DNA of 15,816 nucleotides from a virus (lineage: Duplodnaviria > Heunggongvirae > Uroviricota > Caudoviricetes), in IMG/VR virus record IMGVR_UViG_2711768076_000018; one strand, written 5' to 3'. Of the stretch, positions 1,237-15,816 are shown piece by piece; the first letter of the stretch is position 1, and each line of letters begins with the position of its first letter. The notes under the pieces were generated by a model that saw only the letters and a list, made by a program, of their open reading frames with translations, made no database searches and had not been told where the DNA came from. A program made the translations under genes and the position numbers.

Positions 1237-1246
1237 GGAGTCATAA

Positions 1247-1285
1247 ATGGGATATATCTATAACTTATTTTCAATAACGCATTGA
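1247..1285 (+). pseudogene. orphaned gene start: 12-codon ORF (MGYIYNLFSITH) with strong SD, possibly the truncated 5' end of the gene that normally follows allC
   Basis: GGAG at 1237-1240 lies 6 nt upstream of ATG 1247, and the ORF stops after 12 codons. The spacing (10 nt after the allC stop) is typical of a coupled operon gene. From memory, E. coli allE/ylbA begins MGY, but this is not verified. Confidence 0.3.
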
Positions 1286-1329
1286 TTTAATTAAACAATA
1301 TACACTGCAAGAAGTGCCAAAAATCGCAA

Positions 1330-1353
1330 ATTAACTACACCATTAACTACACC
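1330..1353. repeat. perfect tandem direct repeat, 2 x ATTAACTACACC
   Basis: Read directly: 1330-1341 and 1342-1353 are identical 12-mers in a non-coding AT-rich stretch. Confidence 0.6.
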
Positions 1354-1462
1354 GTTCGGTGCACTGTATGAAACAACGTGGAACAAATAGACACAAGAAA
1401 TATACAGGCGGGTCATCTTTCCAGGGAGAAGCACGCCAATTCATGAGGGGCGTTAATGTCGA

Positions 1463-7025: not shown

Positions 7026-8171
7026 TTACTTGCCAGCCTGAATTTCCAGAATCTTGATGGCGTTCGAATCCACCACACCACCGCCCAGATATTTCTGGGT
7101 ATAGATGTTAATGAATCCAGGCTCGCTGAAATCCGGACGGGTACGCGTACCGGTTTTATGGTCAACGATGAAATAACCGCGCTTAAAGTCACCGACTGCA
7201 ATCACACCGTCCGGCATAAATTCCAGATATTCAACCGGAAGCCCCAGCAGAGAATCAGGATCACCAGCCTGTAAACGATCGCGCCAGATGTAATCACCAG
7301 TGGCATTTTTCAGTTTTTGTGCGGAGGCGGCTGTATTTGAGTTCATCACCCATACAGCTTTTTTGCGGTACTTATTGCGCAGCGTAAATTTCAGGTCAAT
7401 CAGCATATCGGCGCTGAGACTGCCAGTCACTTTTTTCGTCTGGAGCGTACCGAAAGGACGGGTTTTGTCATTATCCGTAGTGCGCGGGAAAGTCAGGAAA
7501 CCTTTGGCTTTTTTCTCGCCATCACCGGAAACCAGATCCGTTTCTTCGGTATCAACGAAAGTGTCGCCAATTTCAGAAGATAACCAGCCCATAATATCGA
7601 CTTCGGAAAAATCGATAATTTCCTGAGTGGTTTTCGGGTAAGCGTAGATCGGATACAGGCGGATACTGACTTCATTCAGTTTTGGGGTTGCCGTCTGGTT
7701 ACGTGCCGCACCTTCTTCGCCGTGTCCCACGACCGCCCCCCCGGCAGAAACCAGTTGCTTAAATTCATTACTGTGAATGGTTTTAACAGTACAGATTTTA
7801 CGCATCACCGACTCATCAGAAAGCTGACGCATAATTTCTCTGTTCAGTTCCGGGATAACCGTATAACCACCATCAGCCGGAACACTGCCGGACAGGTTGC
7901 GGGTTTCCCCGGTCAGAATGTAAGAGCGTAGCTCATTTTTGGTGATTTTATCTTCGACGGGAACACCAGGCTGGTTACGTTCTTCATCAGCCACAGACTC
8001 GAGGCGGGAAATTTCTGTGTCGAGGGAATCGGCTTTTGCACGCAGTTCATCAAACTGTTTGCCTTCGTCATCGGTTAGACTGCGGTTTTCACTGTCGGCT
8101 TTTTCCAGCAGGGATCGCATCTGGTTTTTCAGGGCGGTTTTTTGCTGGCGGAGTTCGATTAATTTCTTCAT
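7026..8171 (-). CDS. major capsid protein (HK97 fold) with N-terminal coiled-coil delta domain
   Basis: 381 aa, ATG at 8171. The N-terminal 60 aa are coiled-coil-like (MKKLIELRQQKTALKNQ ...), followed by a capsid-shell domain with HK97-like C-terminal motifs. Confidence 0.9.
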   Translation of the reverse strand: MKKLIELRQQKTALKNQMRSLLEKADSENRSLTDDEGKQFDELRAKADSLDTEISRLESVADEERNQPGVPVEDKITKNELRSYILTGETRNLSGSVPADGGYTVIPELNREIMRQLSDESVMRKICTVKTIHSNEFKQLVSAGGAVVGHGEEGAARNQTATPKLNEVSIRLYPIYAYPKTTQEIIDFSEVDIMGWLSSEIGDTFVDTEETDLVSGDGEKKAKGFLTFPRTTDNDKTRPFGTLQTKKVTGSLSADMLIDLKFTLRNKYRKKAVWVMNSNTAASAQKLKNATGDYIWRDRLQAGDPDSLLGLPVEYLEFMPDGVIAVGDFKRGYFIVDHKTGTRTRPDFSEPGFINIYTQKYLGGGVVDSNAIKILEIQAGK

Positions 8172-8354
8172 GAAGGTTTTCTCGCATTGGTTAAGATTCA
8201 GGACGTGAAACCAACACGGGGGGAGCGCCGCCCGACACTCTCGGCATCTCGCAGATCAACCCGGCATCGCGCAGGGGGTCAGGCGGCATTGTGGCGGCTC
8301 ACGTCTGAGTGCCACACGCCAACATATACATAAAAATCAGTATGTAAACATCAA

Positions 8355-8392
8355 CCAGAATCACCGAACAACCTGGAACAACCACGAACAAA
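8355..8392 (-). promoter_or_regulatory. three 10-bp-phased TTGTTC repeats upstream of the capsid operon (candidate activator site)
   Basis: Plus-strand GAACAA at 8366, 8376 and 8386. On the minus strand this reads TTGTTCGTGGTTGTTCCAGGTTGTTCGG. The 18-mer TTGTTCGTGGTTGTTCCA is identical to 14651-14668. Confidence 0.5.
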
Positions 8393-8407
8393 TAATTTAC
8401 AAAACCT

Positions 8408-8440
8408 GAAAAAAGGCCCGGAAAAAATCCGGGCCTTTAT
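8408..8440 (-). terminator. intrinsic terminator after the replication/ProQ operon (bidirectional-capable)
   Basis: GGCCCGGA-loop-TCCGGGCC hairpin. The minus-strand RNA has a U6 tract after the stem. Lies just 3' of the 82-aa ORF and about 240 bp upstream of the capsid start. Confidence 0.7.
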
Positions 8441-8444
8441 CGCT

Positions 8445-8693
8445 TTATTGTTTCACTGGCTCCCGCATTCTGCGTCTTATTTTCCACAAATATTCGATCA
8501 TCGCTTCCACCTGCTCACGGTTGGTTGCGAAAATTTCCCCGGTCAGTGAGCTACGCAGAAAATCATGATGATCCACAAAAAATAACGCATCGGAAGAAAG
8601 CAACCGACGATATTTTTTTGCTGTCGTGGTTTCCAGATCATCAAAACCATGAAGCTTTTTATGTTGCTGAACTTCTTCAAATGTCACTGGCAT
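8445..8693 (-). CDS. hypothetical protein (82 aa)
   Basis: ATG at 8693 overlaps the end of the ProQ/FinO gene by 10 nt. No family recognised. Confidence 0.5.
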   Translation of the reverse strand: MPVTFEEVQQHKKLHGFDDLETTTAKKYRRLLSSDALFFVDHHDFLRSSLTGEIFATNREQVEAMIEYLWKIRRRMREPVKQ

Positions 8694-9963: not shown

Positions 9964-10192
9964 CTTCACCTGTTCACCTTTTGAGATTTTCCCTTTTTAT
10001 TCATAATGTTAAGGGGTGAACAGTTTCACAAAAACTATTCACCAACTGTTCACCACTGTTCACCCTTAAAGCTCAATAAATAATCAAAAAGGTGAACAGT
10101 GAATAGTTTGGTGAACAGTTCACAAATAACTGTTCACCCTATAATGTACTGATATAAAAGATATTTATAACAGGGTGAACAGTGGTGAACAG
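9964..10192. repeat. replication origin: iteron array of 9-bp GGTGAACAG / CTGTTCACC repeats flanking AT-rich DNA
   Basis: Perfect copies of GGTGAACAG at 10015, 10091, 10110, 10174 and 10184. Perfect inverse copies CTGTTCACC at 9970, 10046, 10056 and 10130. Degenerate copies at 10035 and 10099. AT-rich stretch at 10140-10170. The array abuts the primase stop at 10206. Confidence 0.75.
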
Positions 10193-10205
10193 TTATTCCA
10201 TAAGT

Positions 10206-12020
10206 TTAATTTTTGCTGTCGTCATTTGTGACCGATGCACATGATGGCATCCAGTCTTCTGAATCCTCTGTCAGTGTCACATTTGAACGCAAACCGTGCT
10301 TCGTTTTCCGTTTTATATACTCCCTGCCATATTCCGCCATTGCCCCCGGCATATCTTTACCGAAGCGCGTCAGTGTTACAGGTTTACCGAATCCGTGTGC
10401 CCTCATATATGCCAGATAGGCGTGATAAAGATACCTGCGCGGACTGAACGGAATAATTTCGGCATTACCCACTAACAGACCATCACACATTACCGACGAC
10501 ATGAGATAGCCACAGAAGTCCACCAGCGAATCGCCCTCGCGTTTTATCACCAGAGCTTCTTCTGATTTCTGCTGCTCATACAGCAGGCGTTTAGCTTCGT
10601 CCTGGTCAGAAAAACGAGTAAGCAGATGGCGAATCACAACCGCCAGCTCTCCTTCTATTTTTTCTGCCAGCATGGGGTCGCGCTCGTTCTCCGGTACAAC
10701 CTCCGAAAAATTGAATATCACCCGACGACGTGAGATCCCCCCGCTGCGGTCACTGAATGACATGGCGTTATTGTTCACCGCCAGCACGACCGCCTGAATG
10801 CGTGTTGAGTAGGGGGCTTTATGCTTCGGGTCGATTGCCACCTTGTCACCGCCTGTAATAGCCTTAATTCCTGCGCCATCACCAGCGTAGCGGGTCATAT
10901 CCGGCATGATAATCAGCGAAAAGCCAACCACTAACGCGCGTTCCCTTGCATCTTCCAGCGCCTTCATGCTTGCCGATACTGTGTTGGCCTTACCCGCCAG
11001 CATGGTGCAAATCTCCGCCATCACGCTTTTACCACTTCCCCCTGGACCTGTTACCTCAATGAATAACTGCCAGTCGTACCGGTTCGCCAGCACCATGAAT
11101 AATGCAGCCAGCACGCGATCCGTCTTGCGGTCATTCTCTGCCACCGAGCAGCGTAACCACTTCCAGAAATTCGGCGCATGTGTTGCCAGCGTTTCCCCCT
11201 CTGCTGGTGGGCTGAAAGGTAATTCACTGGCAATTAACAACCAGTCGTTTTTGTTATGCTCCCGAAAATTACCTGTTCTGGTATCAAATACCCCGTTACT
11301 GAATCCAATCAGGTTACGGGCTGTATTCCCCATTACAGGCAAACTTAACTTCATGGTATCGACCGCCGATTTAATGGCGTTCTGCGAATAGCTGATCTCC
11401 GCATCAATGAAAATCTGCGCCATAGCACGCTGTAACTCTTTATCCTGAATCGGCTCCCATACAACGCCGTTGTAATGGTGAACAGTGTCAGAGTCGGCAT
11501 GAATCGCCAGTTCACCGCCATAATGTGCCAGGAGAACTTCGCCGCGCTGGCTTGCTCCCATCTGGTTAAGCGCCAGTGGTGCGGCGCTGTCTTCTGTTTT
11601 TTTCTTAACAGGAAGCTGAATCACCAGACCATCAGAAAGATTCTGGCGCTCACGGGCCAGATATTCGCGCCAGTTCTGCACCTCCTGGCCGTGCATACCC
11701 TCAGGATAAAAATTTGCATCCTGTACGCCTGCCGCCGCCAGCTTCTGACCAATCGCCTTTATCATTACTGGCGCAAGATATCCGGCCCTGAATATGCGCA
11801 CGGATTTTCTGCCTTCCGGCACAATTTGCAGCTTATCCAGTTCGGATAACTGCTGCTCCCCAAGCCACACAGGAGGCTCATTATCTCCGGCCATACGCGC
11901 GTCATGTTCCTGCCATTGTTTTGCGTGTGACCAGGCATCACTACCCGCAAAAATAATGACTTCTGTTTCTTTGTGTTTTATGCCGCGTGACTGCTGTTTT
12001 ACGTTCGGTGCCAGTTTCAT
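10206..12020 (-). CDS. primase/helicase replication initiator (P4-alpha-like, Walker A NTPase C-terminal domain)
   Basis: 604 aa with Walker A GPGGSGKS in the C-terminal half, of a size typical for satellite or plasmid primase-helicases. ATG 12020 overlaps the upstream stop (ATGA). Confidence 0.85.
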   Translation of the reverse strand: MKLAPNVKQQSRGIKHKETEVIIFAGSDAWSHAKQWQEHDARMAGDNEPPVWLGEQQLSELDKLQIVPEGRKSVRIFRAGYLAPVMIKAIGQKLAAAGVQDANFYPEGMHGQEVQNWREYLARERQNLSDGLVIQLPVKKKTEDSAAPLALNQMGASQRGEVLLAHYGGELAIHADSDTVHHYNGVVWEPIQDKELQRAMAQIFIDAEISYSQNAIKSAVDTMKLSLPVMGNTARNLIGFSNGVFDTRTGNFREHNKNDWLLIASELPFSPPAEGETLATHAPNFWKWLRCSVAENDRKTDRVLAALFMVLANRYDWQLFIEVTGPGGSGKSVMAEICTMLAGKANTVSASMKALEDARERALVVGFSLIIMPDMTRYAGDGAGIKAITGGDKVAIDPKHKAPYSTRIQAVVLAVNNNAMSFSDRSGGISRRRVIFNFSEVVPENERDPMLAEKIEGELAVVIRHLLTRFSDQDEAKRLLYEQQKSEEALVIKREGDSLVDFCGYLMSSVMCDGLLVGNAEIIPFSPRRYLYHAYLAYMRAHGFGKPVTLTRFGKDMPGAMAEYGREYIKRKTKHGLRSNVTLTEDSEDWMPSCASVTNDDSKN

Positions 12021-12555: not shown

Positions 12556-13012
12556 GGCTTACATCCTCAGGAAATTTTCTTCTATAACGCGCCTCTGCCA
12601 CATATTCCGCATAATCGGCGGCGATATTCAGTACATCAAGCCCCGTTGATTTATATTCTCTCGTGGAAAGTAAGAAAAAAGCCGCTCTAATAAGCTCTGG
12701 CATTGACGAAAGCGCATCAGCCGCATCATCAGGAACGCCGGAAAATTCCTGTTTCAGGGAATTAAAACGATCATCACGCATAACCCCCCCATTTTCACAA
12801 TCAGCAATCAGGATGGCTTTAGCCTCATTCAGCGCCATATCCGCACTAAGTTGCATAACAGCCAGTGAGTGAGGAACGAAAGCCCCGGCATATTCTGTTT
12901 CGCTGGTGGCGCGCTTATGCGCCTTGTCTGCGATAACAGAAATATCAATCAGCGCGTGCATCAGCGTTTTGATGGCTTCGGCGGCTGCGTCCGGACGGGT
13001 GTTATTGCACAT
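12548..13012 (-). CDS. hypothetical protein (154 aa)
   Basis: ATG 13012 overlaps the upstream stop by 11 nt. Confidence 0.5.
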   Translation of the reverse strand: MCNNTRPDAAAEAIKTLMHALIDISVIADKAHKRATSETEYAGAFVPHSLAVMQLSADMALNEAKAILIADCENGGVMRDDRFNSLKQEFSGVPDDAADALSSMPELIRAAFFLLSTREYKSTGLDVLNIAADYAEYVAEARYRRKFPEDVSHA

Positions 13013-13208
13013 GGCGTACCCCCTGACGAATACGGGCAGCGAATACCATCACGCAGCCATCAGGAGATTGCTGACGCGCTTCCTGTTCGCTGGTGGCCTC
13101 AATGGTAATCACGCGCGGTTGTGCCGTGCTCAGGGCGATAAAACGCCAGATGTATTTATTCAGGTTGTACGAGTCCCGCCCTTGCGGGTGTCTGGTATAA
13201 TTTCTCAT
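13002..13208 (-). CDS. hypothetical small protein (68 aa), first gene of the leftward replication operon
   Basis: ATG 13208 with GAGG SD. This is the in-frame C-terminal part of a 374-aa ORF-track call that is itself implausible. Confidence 0.4.
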   Translation of the reverse strand: MRNYTRHPQGRDSYNLNKYIWRFIALSTAQPRVITIEATSEQEARQQSPDGCVMVFAARIRQGVRHVQ

Positions 13209-13407
13209 AGCTGCCTCGATACTTCTGCTATCGTTGGTGGTTAGAAGCCCGTTGGTGTTGGTAGCACCTGCGGGCTTTGTCTTTTCATCGATTACCTTAA
13301 TAAAGGTGTCAGCCACTATACTAGTGACAGGTGTCAGCCACGTCAATAGTGTTTTTCTATTTTCTTGTGTGTATACTGTCAGCCACCTAATAACAAGGAA
13401 ATCAGAT
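13209..13407. promoter_or_regulatory. divergent promoter/operator region with three TGTCAGCCAC repeats
   Basis: TGTCAGCCAC at 13307-13316, 13332-13341 and 13377-13386. The third copy overlaps a TATACT -10-like hexamer upstream of the plus-strand gene at 13408. On the minus strand the repeats read GTGGCTGACA and contain -35-like TGACA. Confidence 0.45.
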
Positions 13408-13587
13408 ATGGCAACGAAAGCAGTTAATGGAAAATCCAAAAAACTTGAGGCACGAGTACCCCATGCAATAGCTGACGCTGTAGAAAATTTAAAGGAAGAA
13501 GGCGAAAGCACTGGGCAATTTATCGTTTCGGCGCTTGAAGGTGAGATCAAACGCCGCCAGCGCCGAAAGGCCAAAGAGCAGGAATAA
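13408..13587 (+). CDS. small ribbon-helix-helix-like DNA-binding protein (59 aa), candidate regulator
   Basis: ATG 13408 with AAGGAA SD. The predicted strand-helix-helix pattern (KLEARVPHAIADAVENLKEEGESTGQFIVSALEGEI) and basic C-tail fit an RHH protein. It is one of only two plus-strand genes in the element and diverges from the replication operon. Confidence 0.55.
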   Translation: MATKAVNGKSKKLEARVPHAIADAVENLKEEGESTGQFIVSALEGEIKRRQRRKAKEQE

Positions 13588-13644
13588 CCATCACCAGCGC
13601 CGTGGTGTAAGGTATTACGGCGCATTGCTATGCAGGACAACACA

Positions 13645-13818
13645 ATGACCGATAAAGAATTGACCAAAACATTATCACCGACACGGAAAAGACGACGCAG
13701 AAAGATAGAGCATGAATCAGAAAGATTCGCGCCATGTGCTTTTGCCCTTGAGCAATTCCTTAAAGAGTACAGGGAAAAGCGCTCATTGCAGGTATGGCAA
13801 CGAACTGAACCAGACTGA
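13645..13818 (+). CDS. hypothetical small basic protein (57 aa)
   Basis: ATG 13645 preceded by AGGA at 7-nt spacing. Followed by a plus-strand terminator at 13885-13913. Confidence 0.35.
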   Translation: MTDKELTKTLSPTRKRRRRKIEHESERFAPCAFALEQFLKEYREKRSLQVWQRTEPD

Positions 13819-13884
13819 TTGCATTGCCCACCAGCCGCAAATGTGGCATTGTTGGTGATGCTTTTGTTTTCCCTTGTTCCCACT

Positions 13885-13913
13885 GGCGACCCTTTTGCGG
13901 TCGCCTTTGTTTT
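13885..13913 (+). terminator. intrinsic terminator for the plus-strand small-gene unit
   Basis: GGCGACC-cttttgc-GGTCGCC hairpin followed by TTTGTTTTGCTT. Confidence 0.65.
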
Positions 13914-13951
13914 GCTTGTTATCCGGCAATAGTGGCGCTTCACCACACGGT

Positions 13952-14038
13952 TGATATAATTCCCCTGCACTGATCCATTTTTTTCGCAGCAGGTTAATTG
14001 TTCAGAAAGGCGGTTCCTTATCGGGGCCGCTTTTTTTA
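13952..14038 (+). ncRNA. candidate small RNA (about 70 nt) from an extended -10 promoter to an intrinsic terminator
   Basis: TGaTATAAT at 13952-13960 is a consensus -10 with extended TG motif; the -35 is poor. Terminator hairpin GCGGTTCC-ttatc-GGGGCCGC plus T7 lies at 14010-14037. No ORF with an RBS lies between. Confidence 0.3.
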
Positions 14039-14150
14039 TGCCTGAAAATACCCGATAACATGGCTTTTTAGTTTCACCAGGACGAACGAAGCCCCGCCCC
14101 TGTTCGGGCGTATATCCAGTATTCATGGTTAGATCTCTGTGTTAGTGGAT

Positions 14151-14410: not shown

Positions 14411-14458
14411 TTGGGTTGGGTTGTGTCTGATTGTGTCAGGATGATTCAGAGTTGGCAA
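14411..14458 (-). promoter_or_regulatory. candidate alpA promoter overlapped by 10-bp-phased TTGNGT repeats
   Basis: Minus-strand TTGCCA (plus 14453-14458), a 17-bp spacer, then CACAAT (plus 14430-14435). Plus-strand repeats TTGGGTTGGG / TTGTGTCTGA / TTGTGTCAGG at 14411-14440 have exact 10-bp phase. Confidence 0.3.
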
Positions 14459-14530
14459 ATGTTGAGGCCGTATGGTTTACAGAAAGAGGAACAATCAGGA
14501 TAAAATCATTTAAATTCATGTTAATACAAA

Positions 14531-14560
14531 GGCATAAAATCTCGTTTTATGCCTTTTTTC
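14531..14560 (-). terminator. intrinsic terminator between int and alpA (bidirectional-capable)
   Basis: GGCATAAAA-tctcg-TTTTATGCC hairpin, with TTTTTTC following on the plus strand and TTTGTATT on the minus strand. Confidence 0.6.
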
Positions 14561-14650: not shown

Positions 14651-14700
14651 TTGTTCGTGGTTGTTCCACGTTGTTTCACATTGTTCGCCGTTGTATCTGT
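14651..14700 (+). promoter_or_regulatory. five tandem 10-bp-phased TTGTTC-type repeats just 3' of int
   Basis: TTGTTCGTGG TTGTTCCACG TTGTTTCACA TTGTTCGCCG TTGTATCTGT. The first 18 nt are identical to the array upstream of the capsid operon (8374-8391, opposite strand). Confidence 0.5.
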
Positions 14701-14742: not shown

Positions 14743-15816
14743 TTATTTTCTTCTGGCTGCTGGTAGTGCGGTTACGTTTTCATGTGCTCCCGCCAGTATC
14801 CCTAACCGCTCCGTCCACATATCCAGCGCATTGCGTTTCGCATCCAGATAACGGGAGTGATTATAGACTCGTTGCATCCCTGGCATCTGGTGTCCTGTAA
14901 GCTGCTCCACGACATGCGGATCAACGCCTAAATCGTTCAGCATGGTTGTAAAGGTGCGCCGGATGTCATGCAGTGACCAGTGGGGGTGATTAAGCCTCCT
15001 GTGCGCTAATCTTCCATACTGCGATACGCTGGCCTCCTGTTTCACTTCCCCCAGCAATAAGCCCGTGTGCCTGTTCTGCTCCACCAGCTGCGTGATGAAC
15101 GGCAGTATTGCTTCCGGTATAGGCCGGAATATGGCTACCTTCGTTTTGCTGTGCTCCTTCGGAACGGTCCAGAGCATTTCGGTAAAATCCCACTCGCCGA
15201 TCTCCGATAACCTAAGTTCGACCGTCCGGCATCCGAACACAATCAGGAGGCGGATTAGCGCGATGTAGTAGGGGGAAAATATTTTTTTGTCCAGTGCCTG
15301 CAATAATTCGCCCAGCTCTTTATTGCTTAAGACACGTTCGCTTATATCCGGTTTTTTCCCAACGTCCGCTACGTTCAGATCATCGAGAACGTTACTGATT
15401 GCATAGCGCCGCCTCCGGCAGTACTTAAGCGCCTGTTTGCATGTCTGTAGCACGAATCCGGCAGTAACAGGTGTTCGCTTTGCCACCTGGTCAAAGCAGG
15501 CCAGCCAGTGCCGTAGCTCGCATTTATCCAGCGGCATAGCACCAATTTTGGTGATTATGTTTTTATTGATCCGGCTTTTCAGTGATTCGTAATCTGTGCG
15601 CTTTTCCTTTGCGTACGACTCAAGCCAATAGGTGAGCGCATCGCCAACCGTTACAGGCTTTAACGCTTCCTGCATGGTGTAATTCAGTTCATAGCGTGGA
15701 TTTTTCCCCTCAGCCAGCCATGCGCGACACTGGGCGGCTTTTTCCCTGGCTGCTTTCAGACTCAGATCGGGATAATTTCCCAGCTTAACGCGTTCAGGTT
15801 GTGTCCCTCTTCCCAT
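14743..15816 (-). CDS. int: tyrosine integrase (P4/CP4-57 type), 5'-partial
   Basis: 357 aa visible, with the C-terminal catalytic region (HDIRRTF ... YNHSRY). The region LGNYPDLSLKAAREKAAQCRAWLAEGKNP aligns, from memory, to around residues 55-85 of P4-type integrases, so about 45 N-terminal codons probably lie beyond the window. Confidence 0.85.
   Translation of the reverse strand: MGRGTQPERVKLGNYPDLSLKAAREKAAQCRAWLAEGKNPRYELNYTMQEALKPVTVGDALTYWLESYAKEKRTDYESLKSRINKNIITKIGAMPLDKCELRHWLACFDQVAKRTPVTAGFVLQTCKQALKYCRRRRYAISNVLDDLNVADVGKKPDISERVLSNKELGELLQALDKKIFSPYYIALIRLLIVFGCRTVELRLSEIGEWDFTEMLWTVPKEHSKTKVAIFRPIPEAILPFITQLVEQNRHTGLLLGEVKQEASVSQYGRLAHRRLNHPHWSLHDIRRTFTTMLNDLGVDPHVVEQLTGHQMPGMQRVYNHSRYLDAKRNALDMWTERLGILAGAHENVTALPAARRK

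Follow-up and report, generated by a model that had tools for sequence, protein, structure and literature searches.

The island and its gene order

The analyzed stretch of DNA (15,816 nucleotides, hereafter the window) is an Escherichia coli capsid-forming satellite of the PICI type; near-identical islands were found in E. coli chromosomes at the allC/allE, phoQ/roxA, tqsA and smrA/abgR sites. All island genes are carried by the minus strand (Table 1). The P4-type integrase gene, which is cut by the window end, comprises 409 codons in its complete form, as seen in a sister island (L001). It is followed in the island order by alpA, the primase gene, the genes of an SSB and a ProQ/FinO-like protein between primase and capsid, and an operon with the order capsid-protease-portal-connector-HNH-TerS-TerL, in which the capsid gene is the first one. 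The region 13002-14126 forms in the window a single frame of 374 aa, residues 282-373 of which match the PHROG 'transcriptional repressor'; in sister genomes the annotation divides this region into Icd-like, YlcI and pseudogene parts.

Table 1. Positions of the genes and sequence elements discussed in the text; coordinates refer to the window unless another locus is named.
Feature	Position	Strand	Remarks
allC (host gene)	1-1236
Left att core ATAAATGGGATAT	1244-1256	+	at the allE start codon; empty K-12 site compared with the occupied site
Tandem 12-bp pair, ATTAACTACACC twice	1330-1353	+	GGTGTAGTTAAT when read in the int sense
Third site, two units TTGTTCCACG TTGTTTCATA	1367-1386	-	int-distal (P') att arm
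Major capsid gene, HK97-type	7026-8171	-	ATG at 8171
G+C-rich 5' leader of the capsid operon	8172-8320	-	62% G+C
Capsid-operon promoter, weak sigma-70 type (predicted), TTTACA-16-TATGTT	8321-8348	-	consensus scan
Capsid-upstream array, three 10-bp units TTGTTCGTGG TTGTTCCAGG TTGTTCGGTG	8362-8391	-
G+C-rich hairpin with flanking A/T runs	8410-8438		read from the sequence; an equivalent was called by the scan in L008
D5-type primase gene	10206-12020	-
alpA, 62 aa, Pfam PF05930	14179-14367	-	proposed binder of the arrays
Conserved promoter-like element 5' of alpA, TTGCCA-17-(TG)CACAAT	14430-14458	-
Conserved hairpin, 13-bp stem	14528-14556		separates int-alpA array from alpA promoter
int-alpA array, five 10-bp units TTGTTCGTGG TTGTTCCACG TTGTTTCACA TTGTTCGCCG TTGTATCTGT	14651-14700	+	antisense to int and alpA
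P4-type tyrosine integrase gene, N-terminal Arm-DNA-bind_3 domain	14743-15816	-	incomplete at the window end
Pre-alpA GTTCG/CGAAC hairpins	L013 9960-10000; L074 2290-2325; L078 3940-3975; L086 2480-2515; L093 3940-3975		other islands

Phased TTGTTC units in the window

An earlier note, made from the letters of the window, had described an 18-mer, TTGTTCGTGGTTGTTCCA, as common to the capsid-operon upstream region and the int-alpA intergenic region. Both exact matches were recovered, at 8374-8391 (-) and 14651-14668 (+), with 0.02 expected and none of 200 shuffles reaching two. The arrangement of repeats reported around them was reproduced as well: upstream of the capsid gene three TTGTTC units at 10-bp spacing start at 8391, 8381 and 8371 of the minus strand, i.e., in the operon orientation and 195-220 bp 5' of the capsid ATG, while between int and alpA the 18-mer heads an array of five units at strict 10-bp spacing. 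Next to the capsid-upstream array, at 8392-8402, there is a further, fourth unit, TTGTAAATTAT, which is weak. Beyond what had been described, the int-alpA array reads TTGTTC on the plus strand and is thus inverted relative to the capsid array, and the third site (1367-1386, minus strand) has 18 nt in common with positions 14661-14678.

The enrichment concerns the phased arrangement. The pair TTGTT-N5-TTGTT occurs in the window seven times at an expectation of 0.07, whereas the TTGTTC hexamer by itself is not enriched there (12 observed, 10.9 expected), and the 10-bp register is strict at every array site. Two more phased pairs lie on the plus strand inside the 374-aa frame, at 13864-13883 (TTGTTTTCCC TTGTTCCCAC) and at 13907-13925 (TTGTTTTGCT TTGTTATCCG), and may have arisen by chance.

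Island ends and att arms

The true boundary of the island is the att core ATAAATGGGATAT at the allE start codon. A 26-bp direct repeat, AATTAACTACACCATTAACTACACCG, present at 1326-1351 of the window and for the second time 21 bp 5' of the int ATG in L001, was rejected as the att core, its flanks being unchanged at another insertion site and the empty K-12 site showing the shorter core. This 26-mer represents the tandem 12-bp repeat pair present in both arms; the second pair is located beyond the window, 21 bp 5' of the int ATG. The 12-bp pairs are presumably the arm-type sites of the integrase, and a conspicuous terminal repeat of such an origin could mislead the calling of island boundaries.

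The TTGTTC units of the att arms adjoin these arm-type repeats. In the int-distal arm the third site is separated from the 12-bp pair by 14 bp, and the same arm contains, at 1275-1287 (-), a putative IHF site, AATCAATGCGTTA, which matches the consensus WATCAANNNNTTR. In the int-proximal arm, which is situated beyond the window, the space between the core and the 12-bp pair contains two blocks, each of three to four units, in all sister islands of E. coli, and the same layout was found in L013, L015, L074-L093 and L185.

Distribution and conservation of the arrays

The motif search in related islands revealed units at equivalent positions in every E. coli sister island, namely in the int-proximal arm, beside the distal-arm pair (two units) and just 3' of the int stop codon (three to six units), with three additional units 5' of the capsid gene in the capsid-forming ones. 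The AlpA scan of genome contigs gave three loci and a word-based protein search 19 homologues; the metagenome and viral scans were far more productive, and the census of chains was performed with 160 AlpA-encoding metagenomic and viral loci (975 kb). Chains of at least three units were confined in this set to three kinds of location: the int-alpA interval (106 cases, each of them antisense), the int-proximal arm (31) and origin iterons of one type (30). Among 25 distinct array variants and aligned diverged int-alpA spacers, TTGT was fixed in the 10-bp register and the remaining positions varied. Within the TTGTTC core, G and C positions are conserved besides the A/T ones. The invariant phased TTGT is the pattern expected of a protein-binding array. 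These arrays accompany int-alpA modules into distant, G+C-rich hosts (L015).

Phased direct repeats also form the arm-type integrase sites P'1-P'3 of lambda; the TTGTTC units are phased direct repeats present in both att arms, and the island integrase possesses an N-terminal arm-binding domain, so that the units could be regarded as its own arm-type sites. We consider this highly improbable and rejected the units as integrase arm sites, because it is the 12-bp pair, and not the units, that covaries with the N-terminal domain of the integrase. The pair appears as GTAGTTAAT, GTAGTCACT, GTGGTCAGT, GCAGTCAGT, GTATCACAA, TGGTCCAAACT, GGTTGCATGA or TGTATAAACA. The GTAGTCACT variant was found in 24 loci with a diverged integrase N-terminus and AlpA up to 100% identical to that of the window, and the variants from GTGGTCAGT to TGTATAAACA go with more distant integrases, whereas the TGTTC core does not change, whether the integrases are 100% identical or so diverged that no similarity is detected. 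Moreover, the 12-bp pair matches in position the annotated arm repeats of P4 and the IntS arm sites of KplE1, and the arrays at the capsid promoter and 3' of int lie where a recombination role is absent.

The origin iterons of the window (GGTGAACAG/CTGTTCACC, 9969-10194), which are arranged in both orientations around an A+T-rich stretch, have the TGTTC core in common with the arrays, and some of them are 10 bp apart. That the arrays are themselves replication-origin iterons is, nevertheless, scarcely credible: the iteron sequence follows the replicase type, four replicase types being accompanied by four iteron types (GGTGAACAG, TGCGGGTTA, TCCCCAC and GGTAGAC), while the arrays stay constant and do not adjoin the replicase gene. 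The iteron reading was rejected on these grounds.

The int-alpA intergenic region

The first base of the int-alpA array lies 43 nt past the int stop codon, and the array as a whole is 285-335 bp 5' of the alpA start; its distance to the conserved alpA promoter, from which the conserved hairpin separates it, is about 190-240 bp. No promoter directly adjoining the array in either direction was found by inspection, and none passed the scan. The Klebsiella island has its int-alpA array in the sense orientation. Upstream of alpA in this island (L185 7130-7330) there are three distinct adjoining 10-bp tandem arrays, built of CATTCAACAG (four copies), CGACACGTAA (three to four) and TGTTCATCA (five to six). 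Where an island has an additional ORF separating int from alpA, a hairpin with GTTCG/CGAAC, followed by a T-run, is situated directly before the alpA ATG (Table 1).

The capsid-operon upstream region

With respect to the predicted capsid promoter, the three-unit array would extend from about -77 to -48. Promoters were called solely by their match to the consensus; in the capsid region one promoter passes the scan in the window and none passes the threshold in the EDL933-type island L008. In the window, L008, L186 and L187, 22-25 nt separate the start of the third unit from TTTAC(A/C), and five sequence variants with flanks that otherwise differ agree in the spacing of array and TTTACA. The order and the distance of the elements are likewise the same in the EDL933-type islands, and also in L186 and L187, two more variants from E. 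coli in which the unit flanks, leaders and upstream genes are different. An array at a fixed distance upstream of a -35 element is the arrangement of a class I type activator site, as that of the Cox boxes at P4 PLL. The hairpin at 8410-8438 is probably, to judge by its G+C-rich stem and A/T runs, the terminator of the upstream replication operon; closing that operon, it would leave the capsid operon in need of its own promoter.

The G+C-rich leader, which the earlier note had placed downstream of the capsid array, is indeed present there: 8172-8320 contains 62% G+C against 51% in the window and 37% in 8321-8445. It starts with a conserved hairpin, GTGGCACTCAGACGTGAGCCGCCAC (8315-8291, minus strand), identical in the Klebsiella capsid-forming island (L185 12150-12174), where the identity of the capsid protein does not exceed about 67%, and also in the E. 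coli variants L186 and L187; it is apparently a conserved cis or RNA element. The structure of the window leader is not unusual (z=-1.05), and no known RNA family of Rfam was matched in the window. The EDL933-type islands possess a different, strongly structured capsid leader (L008 9788-9960, minus strand; z=-4.8), which closes with a hairpin and U8 directly before the capsid AUG and resembles a leader terminator.

The capsid-upstream region was matched by 523 of the 5426 E. coli genomes, many of which, e.g., those with O157-type islands, matched it only over a block of 53-58 bp that holds the array. The same block had no matches in 50,697 phage records, and it therefore belongs to the island rather than having been acquired with the phage head module. 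The capsid array is limited to the E. coli-type capsid-forming islands; in the Klebsiella capsid-forming island it is only degenerate, and the classical PICIs (CFT073 type) have no array before the morphogenesis operon. Another conserved element, TTTCATAAxTTGCAA...TGCAATCATxAT, precedes this operon in the classical PICIs (L007 8058-8325; L012 7080-7280), and its presence implies a regulator different from that of the capsid-forming islands.

The position of the capsid block, at a junction with differing flanking modules, is what could be expected if the 18-mer were a recombination joint between modules. AA/TT dinucleotides at 10-bp phase bend DNA, and the arrays might equally act by phased AACAA/TTGTT curvature that helps promoters or intasomes; in both cases they would have no sequence-specific partner. 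We regard this as very unlikely, considering that the conservation noted above extends to the G and C positions of the core, that the core is found again at five places of distinct function as well as in distant taxa, and that bending of the IHF type is already supplied by the IHF-like site.

AlpA as the candidate binder of the arrays

The AlpA protein of the window matches Pfam AlpA (E=3e-18) and the PHROG 'excisionase and transcriptional regulator'. Its structural model (pLDDT 87) is a winged helix with the best matches to the GIsul2 excisionase (TM 0.83) and RdfS and weaker ones (E about 0.6-0.7) to Xis, TorI and BldC, so that the Xis-like winged helix ascribed to AlpA in the earlier note agrees with the excisionase fold of the model. 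Excisionase-type winged-helix proteins bind direct repeats head-to-tail. The TGTTC-keeping orthologues (49-100% identity) have in common a putative recognition helix, SR(S/T)xR(Y/W/F); in CP4-57 AlpA and P4 Vis the recognition helix is different, and the phased units there are (G/T)TCCG. The antitermination model of Pseudomonas aeruginosa AlpA, a Q-like antiterminator with a 21Q-like fold of at least eight helices and a single GGGACG element between -35 and -10, was rejected for the island protein, since the two proteins have only the name in common, the 62-aa island protein having an excisionase fold, and the architecture of the elements differs (PMC7969949, PMC9371919).

AlpA was previously shown to be needed for the induction of EcCICFT073 and EcCIEDL933, and its overexpression resulted in excision and replication of EcCICFT073; AlpA also activates the alpA promoter itself (PMC6092414; 10.1101/2022.09.08.507074). 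Excision of PICMI is triggered by AlpA alone (PMC10803314). Mapping of the published primers demonstrated that the AlpA-responsive PalpA reporter fragment corresponds to L007 13943-14398 and holds the whole int-alpA array. The Pint reporter, which according to the mapped published primer spans the int-proximal arrays, was unchanged in expression by AlpA (PMC6092414); this null response fits an architectural role of the int-proximal arm, being at the same time mild evidence against AlpA binding. No definition of the AlpA DNA-binding site was found in the searchable literature.

Another DNA-binding protein of the island is an unlikely binder of the arrays. The repressor-like C-terminal domain of the 374-aa frame (residues 282-373) and a PerC/YlcI family protein come into consideration, several small regulators being annotated in the sister islands, but the gene content between alpA and the primase gene differs among the islands that share the arrays, and, among the loci examined, the DNA-binding genes shared by every lineage with arrays are int and alpA.

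The TGTTC core and the 10-bp adjacency of the units also fit the TorR boxes, hence a host regulator of the OmpR/PhoB family, with TorR or an ArcA-like protein as candidates, could bind the arrays and tie the island to host physiology. In the torC promoter of K-12, at torCAD, tor boxes 1 and 2 are TGTTC-core decamers that directly adjoin each other, CTGTTCATAT CTGTTCATAT, as units do in the arrays; in some islands the units read TTGTTCATTG or CTGTTCATCA, and only in some islands does the 3' half of the tor decamer match. Besides, the core is constant across AlpA proteins of 49-100% identity, as a conserved host factor would require. Nevertheless, we judge such a regulator to be improbable. The tor boxes are bound by a host response regulator and have no link to att sites, and their ATAT half is usually absent from the arrays, which sit where recombination directionality factors bind in mapped att sites and travel with int-alpA modules into distant G+C-rich hosts. 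Furthermore, AlpA has to bind within the arms, and no further repeated element is left there for it.

Considering these facts, AlpA is the best remaining candidate, and we find it reasonably probable that the TTGTTC(G/C) units at 10-bp phase are operator sites of the island's own AlpA. The features found are those of an excisionase-site array, i.e., short repeats in 10-bp phase, their location in the att arms beside integrase arm-type sites, and a small winged-helix protein of the excisionase type encoded in the same element. We infer AlpA as the binder, the position of the capsid promoter, and activation rather than repression at this promoter.

The broader claim of the earlier note, that a single protein, likely AlpA, serves both the integration/excision control point and the capsid operon, is thus upheld in part, having withstood all the comparative tests that were run. 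The units in the att arms, the fold of AlpA, the PalpA fragment, the fixed distance to the -35 element and the lack of covariation with integrase or replicase speak for it, while the inverted orientation of the int-alpA array, the unresponsive Pint reporter and the limitation of the capsid array to the E. coli-type capsid-forming islands speak against it. Only tentatively, as a scheme with somewhat less than an even chance of being correct in full, we propose that one switch protein, AlpA, and one operator, TGTTC at 10-bp phase, are put to three uses: excisionase sites in both arms, feedback on alpA itself, and activation of the capsid/packaging operon. With the units as its operators, AlpA bound to the arrays of both att arms, beside the integrase arm pairs and the IHF-like site, would shape the excisive complex; the five-unit array 5' of alpA would mediate the published positive autoregulation; and, in E. 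coli capsid-forming islands, the array of three units before a weak promoter (about -77 to -48) would allow AlpA to switch on the capsid/packaging operon directly, so that one protein could couple excision to head-gene expression.

If the scheme of three uses is true, E. coli capsid-forming satellites have put a phage-derived head module under satellite control by means of a three-unit array of excisionase boxes before a weak promoter. Gram-negative phage-inducible islands have AlpA as their master switch, and the mapped candidate operator makes its DNA target testable; the same holds for its action as an excisionase and a transcription factor in one island, for the turn-on of the head/packaging operon, and for the question why the classical islands regulate morphogenesis differently. 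In addition, the array provides a sequence signature for the annotation of att arms and island boundaries.

Comparison with known systems

The islands of the window's kind belong to the Gram-negative PICIs of Fillol-Salom et al. 2018 (PMC6092414) and Alqurainy et al. (10.1101/2022.09.08.507074), having the same AlpA family and including the same islands, EcCICFT073 (L007) and the EcCIEDL933 type (L008). The published work on AlpA in PICIs defines no binding site in the searchable literature, for which the present arrays are a candidate.

The att arms resemble those of KplE1 (CPS-53), in the attL of which the TorI sites, followed by the IntS arm-type pair just 5' of the intS ATG, were mapped experimentally (Panis et al. 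2010, PMC2951348). In both elements short direct repeats with a GTTC core lie between the att core and the integrase arm pair, and the integrase promoter is embedded in the arm; the cores of the TorI sites are GTTCG, GATCG and GTCCG, and three of these sites are at 10-bp phase and overlap the intS -35. However, TorI is only 26% identical to the island AlpA and falls outside Pfam AlpA, so the comparison is one of analogy and not of a shared family. Also, TorI sites are known only at attL, as a repressor site, whereas the island arrays are found in addition upstream of alpA and of the capsid operon.

The tor boxes (two adjacent CTGTTCATAT; L184 1474-1535, K-12 torC promoter) and the KplE1 TorI sites (GTTCG) have the array core in common. 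TorI is an inhibitor of TorR. The DNA core shared by tor boxes, TorI sites and island arrays may be not coincidental, and the likeness of the proposed operator to both could, if the AlpA reading is true, mean cross-talk of the excisionase with a host two-component regulator.

In the attP of P4 (NC_001609, 'attP arm sequence repeat') 12-bp tandem pairs are present in both arms, one of them about 15 bp 5' of the int ATG, similarly to the GGTGTAGTTAAT pairs of the island. The counterpart of the P4 arm repeats is thus the 12-bp family rather than the TTGTTC units; next to these repeats P4 has phased units of the form (G/T)TCCG.

Small excisionase-type proteins that bind 10-bp phased repeats at att sites and promoters, and in this way join excision with the control of transcription, are represented by P2 Cox (Pe-Pc and attP of P2, PLL of P4), 186 Apl and P4 Vis, and the proposal made here is of the same kind. 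The activation of the capsid operon by AlpA would resemble in particular the action of P2 Cox on the Cox boxes at P4 PLL. In the vis-sid/ori region of P4 the box TTAAAGNCA is present three times in phase; these boxes bear the annotation 'ori type 2 repeats' and correspond to the Cox boxes of PLL. At PLL the protein comes from the helper phage, whereas for the island the satellite's own protein is proposed; the box sequence differs, and the target operon of the island is a complete head and packaging module. The kind of system is therefore known from P2 Cox, 186 Apl, P4 Vis and TorI, and the wiring to head genes proposed here is new.
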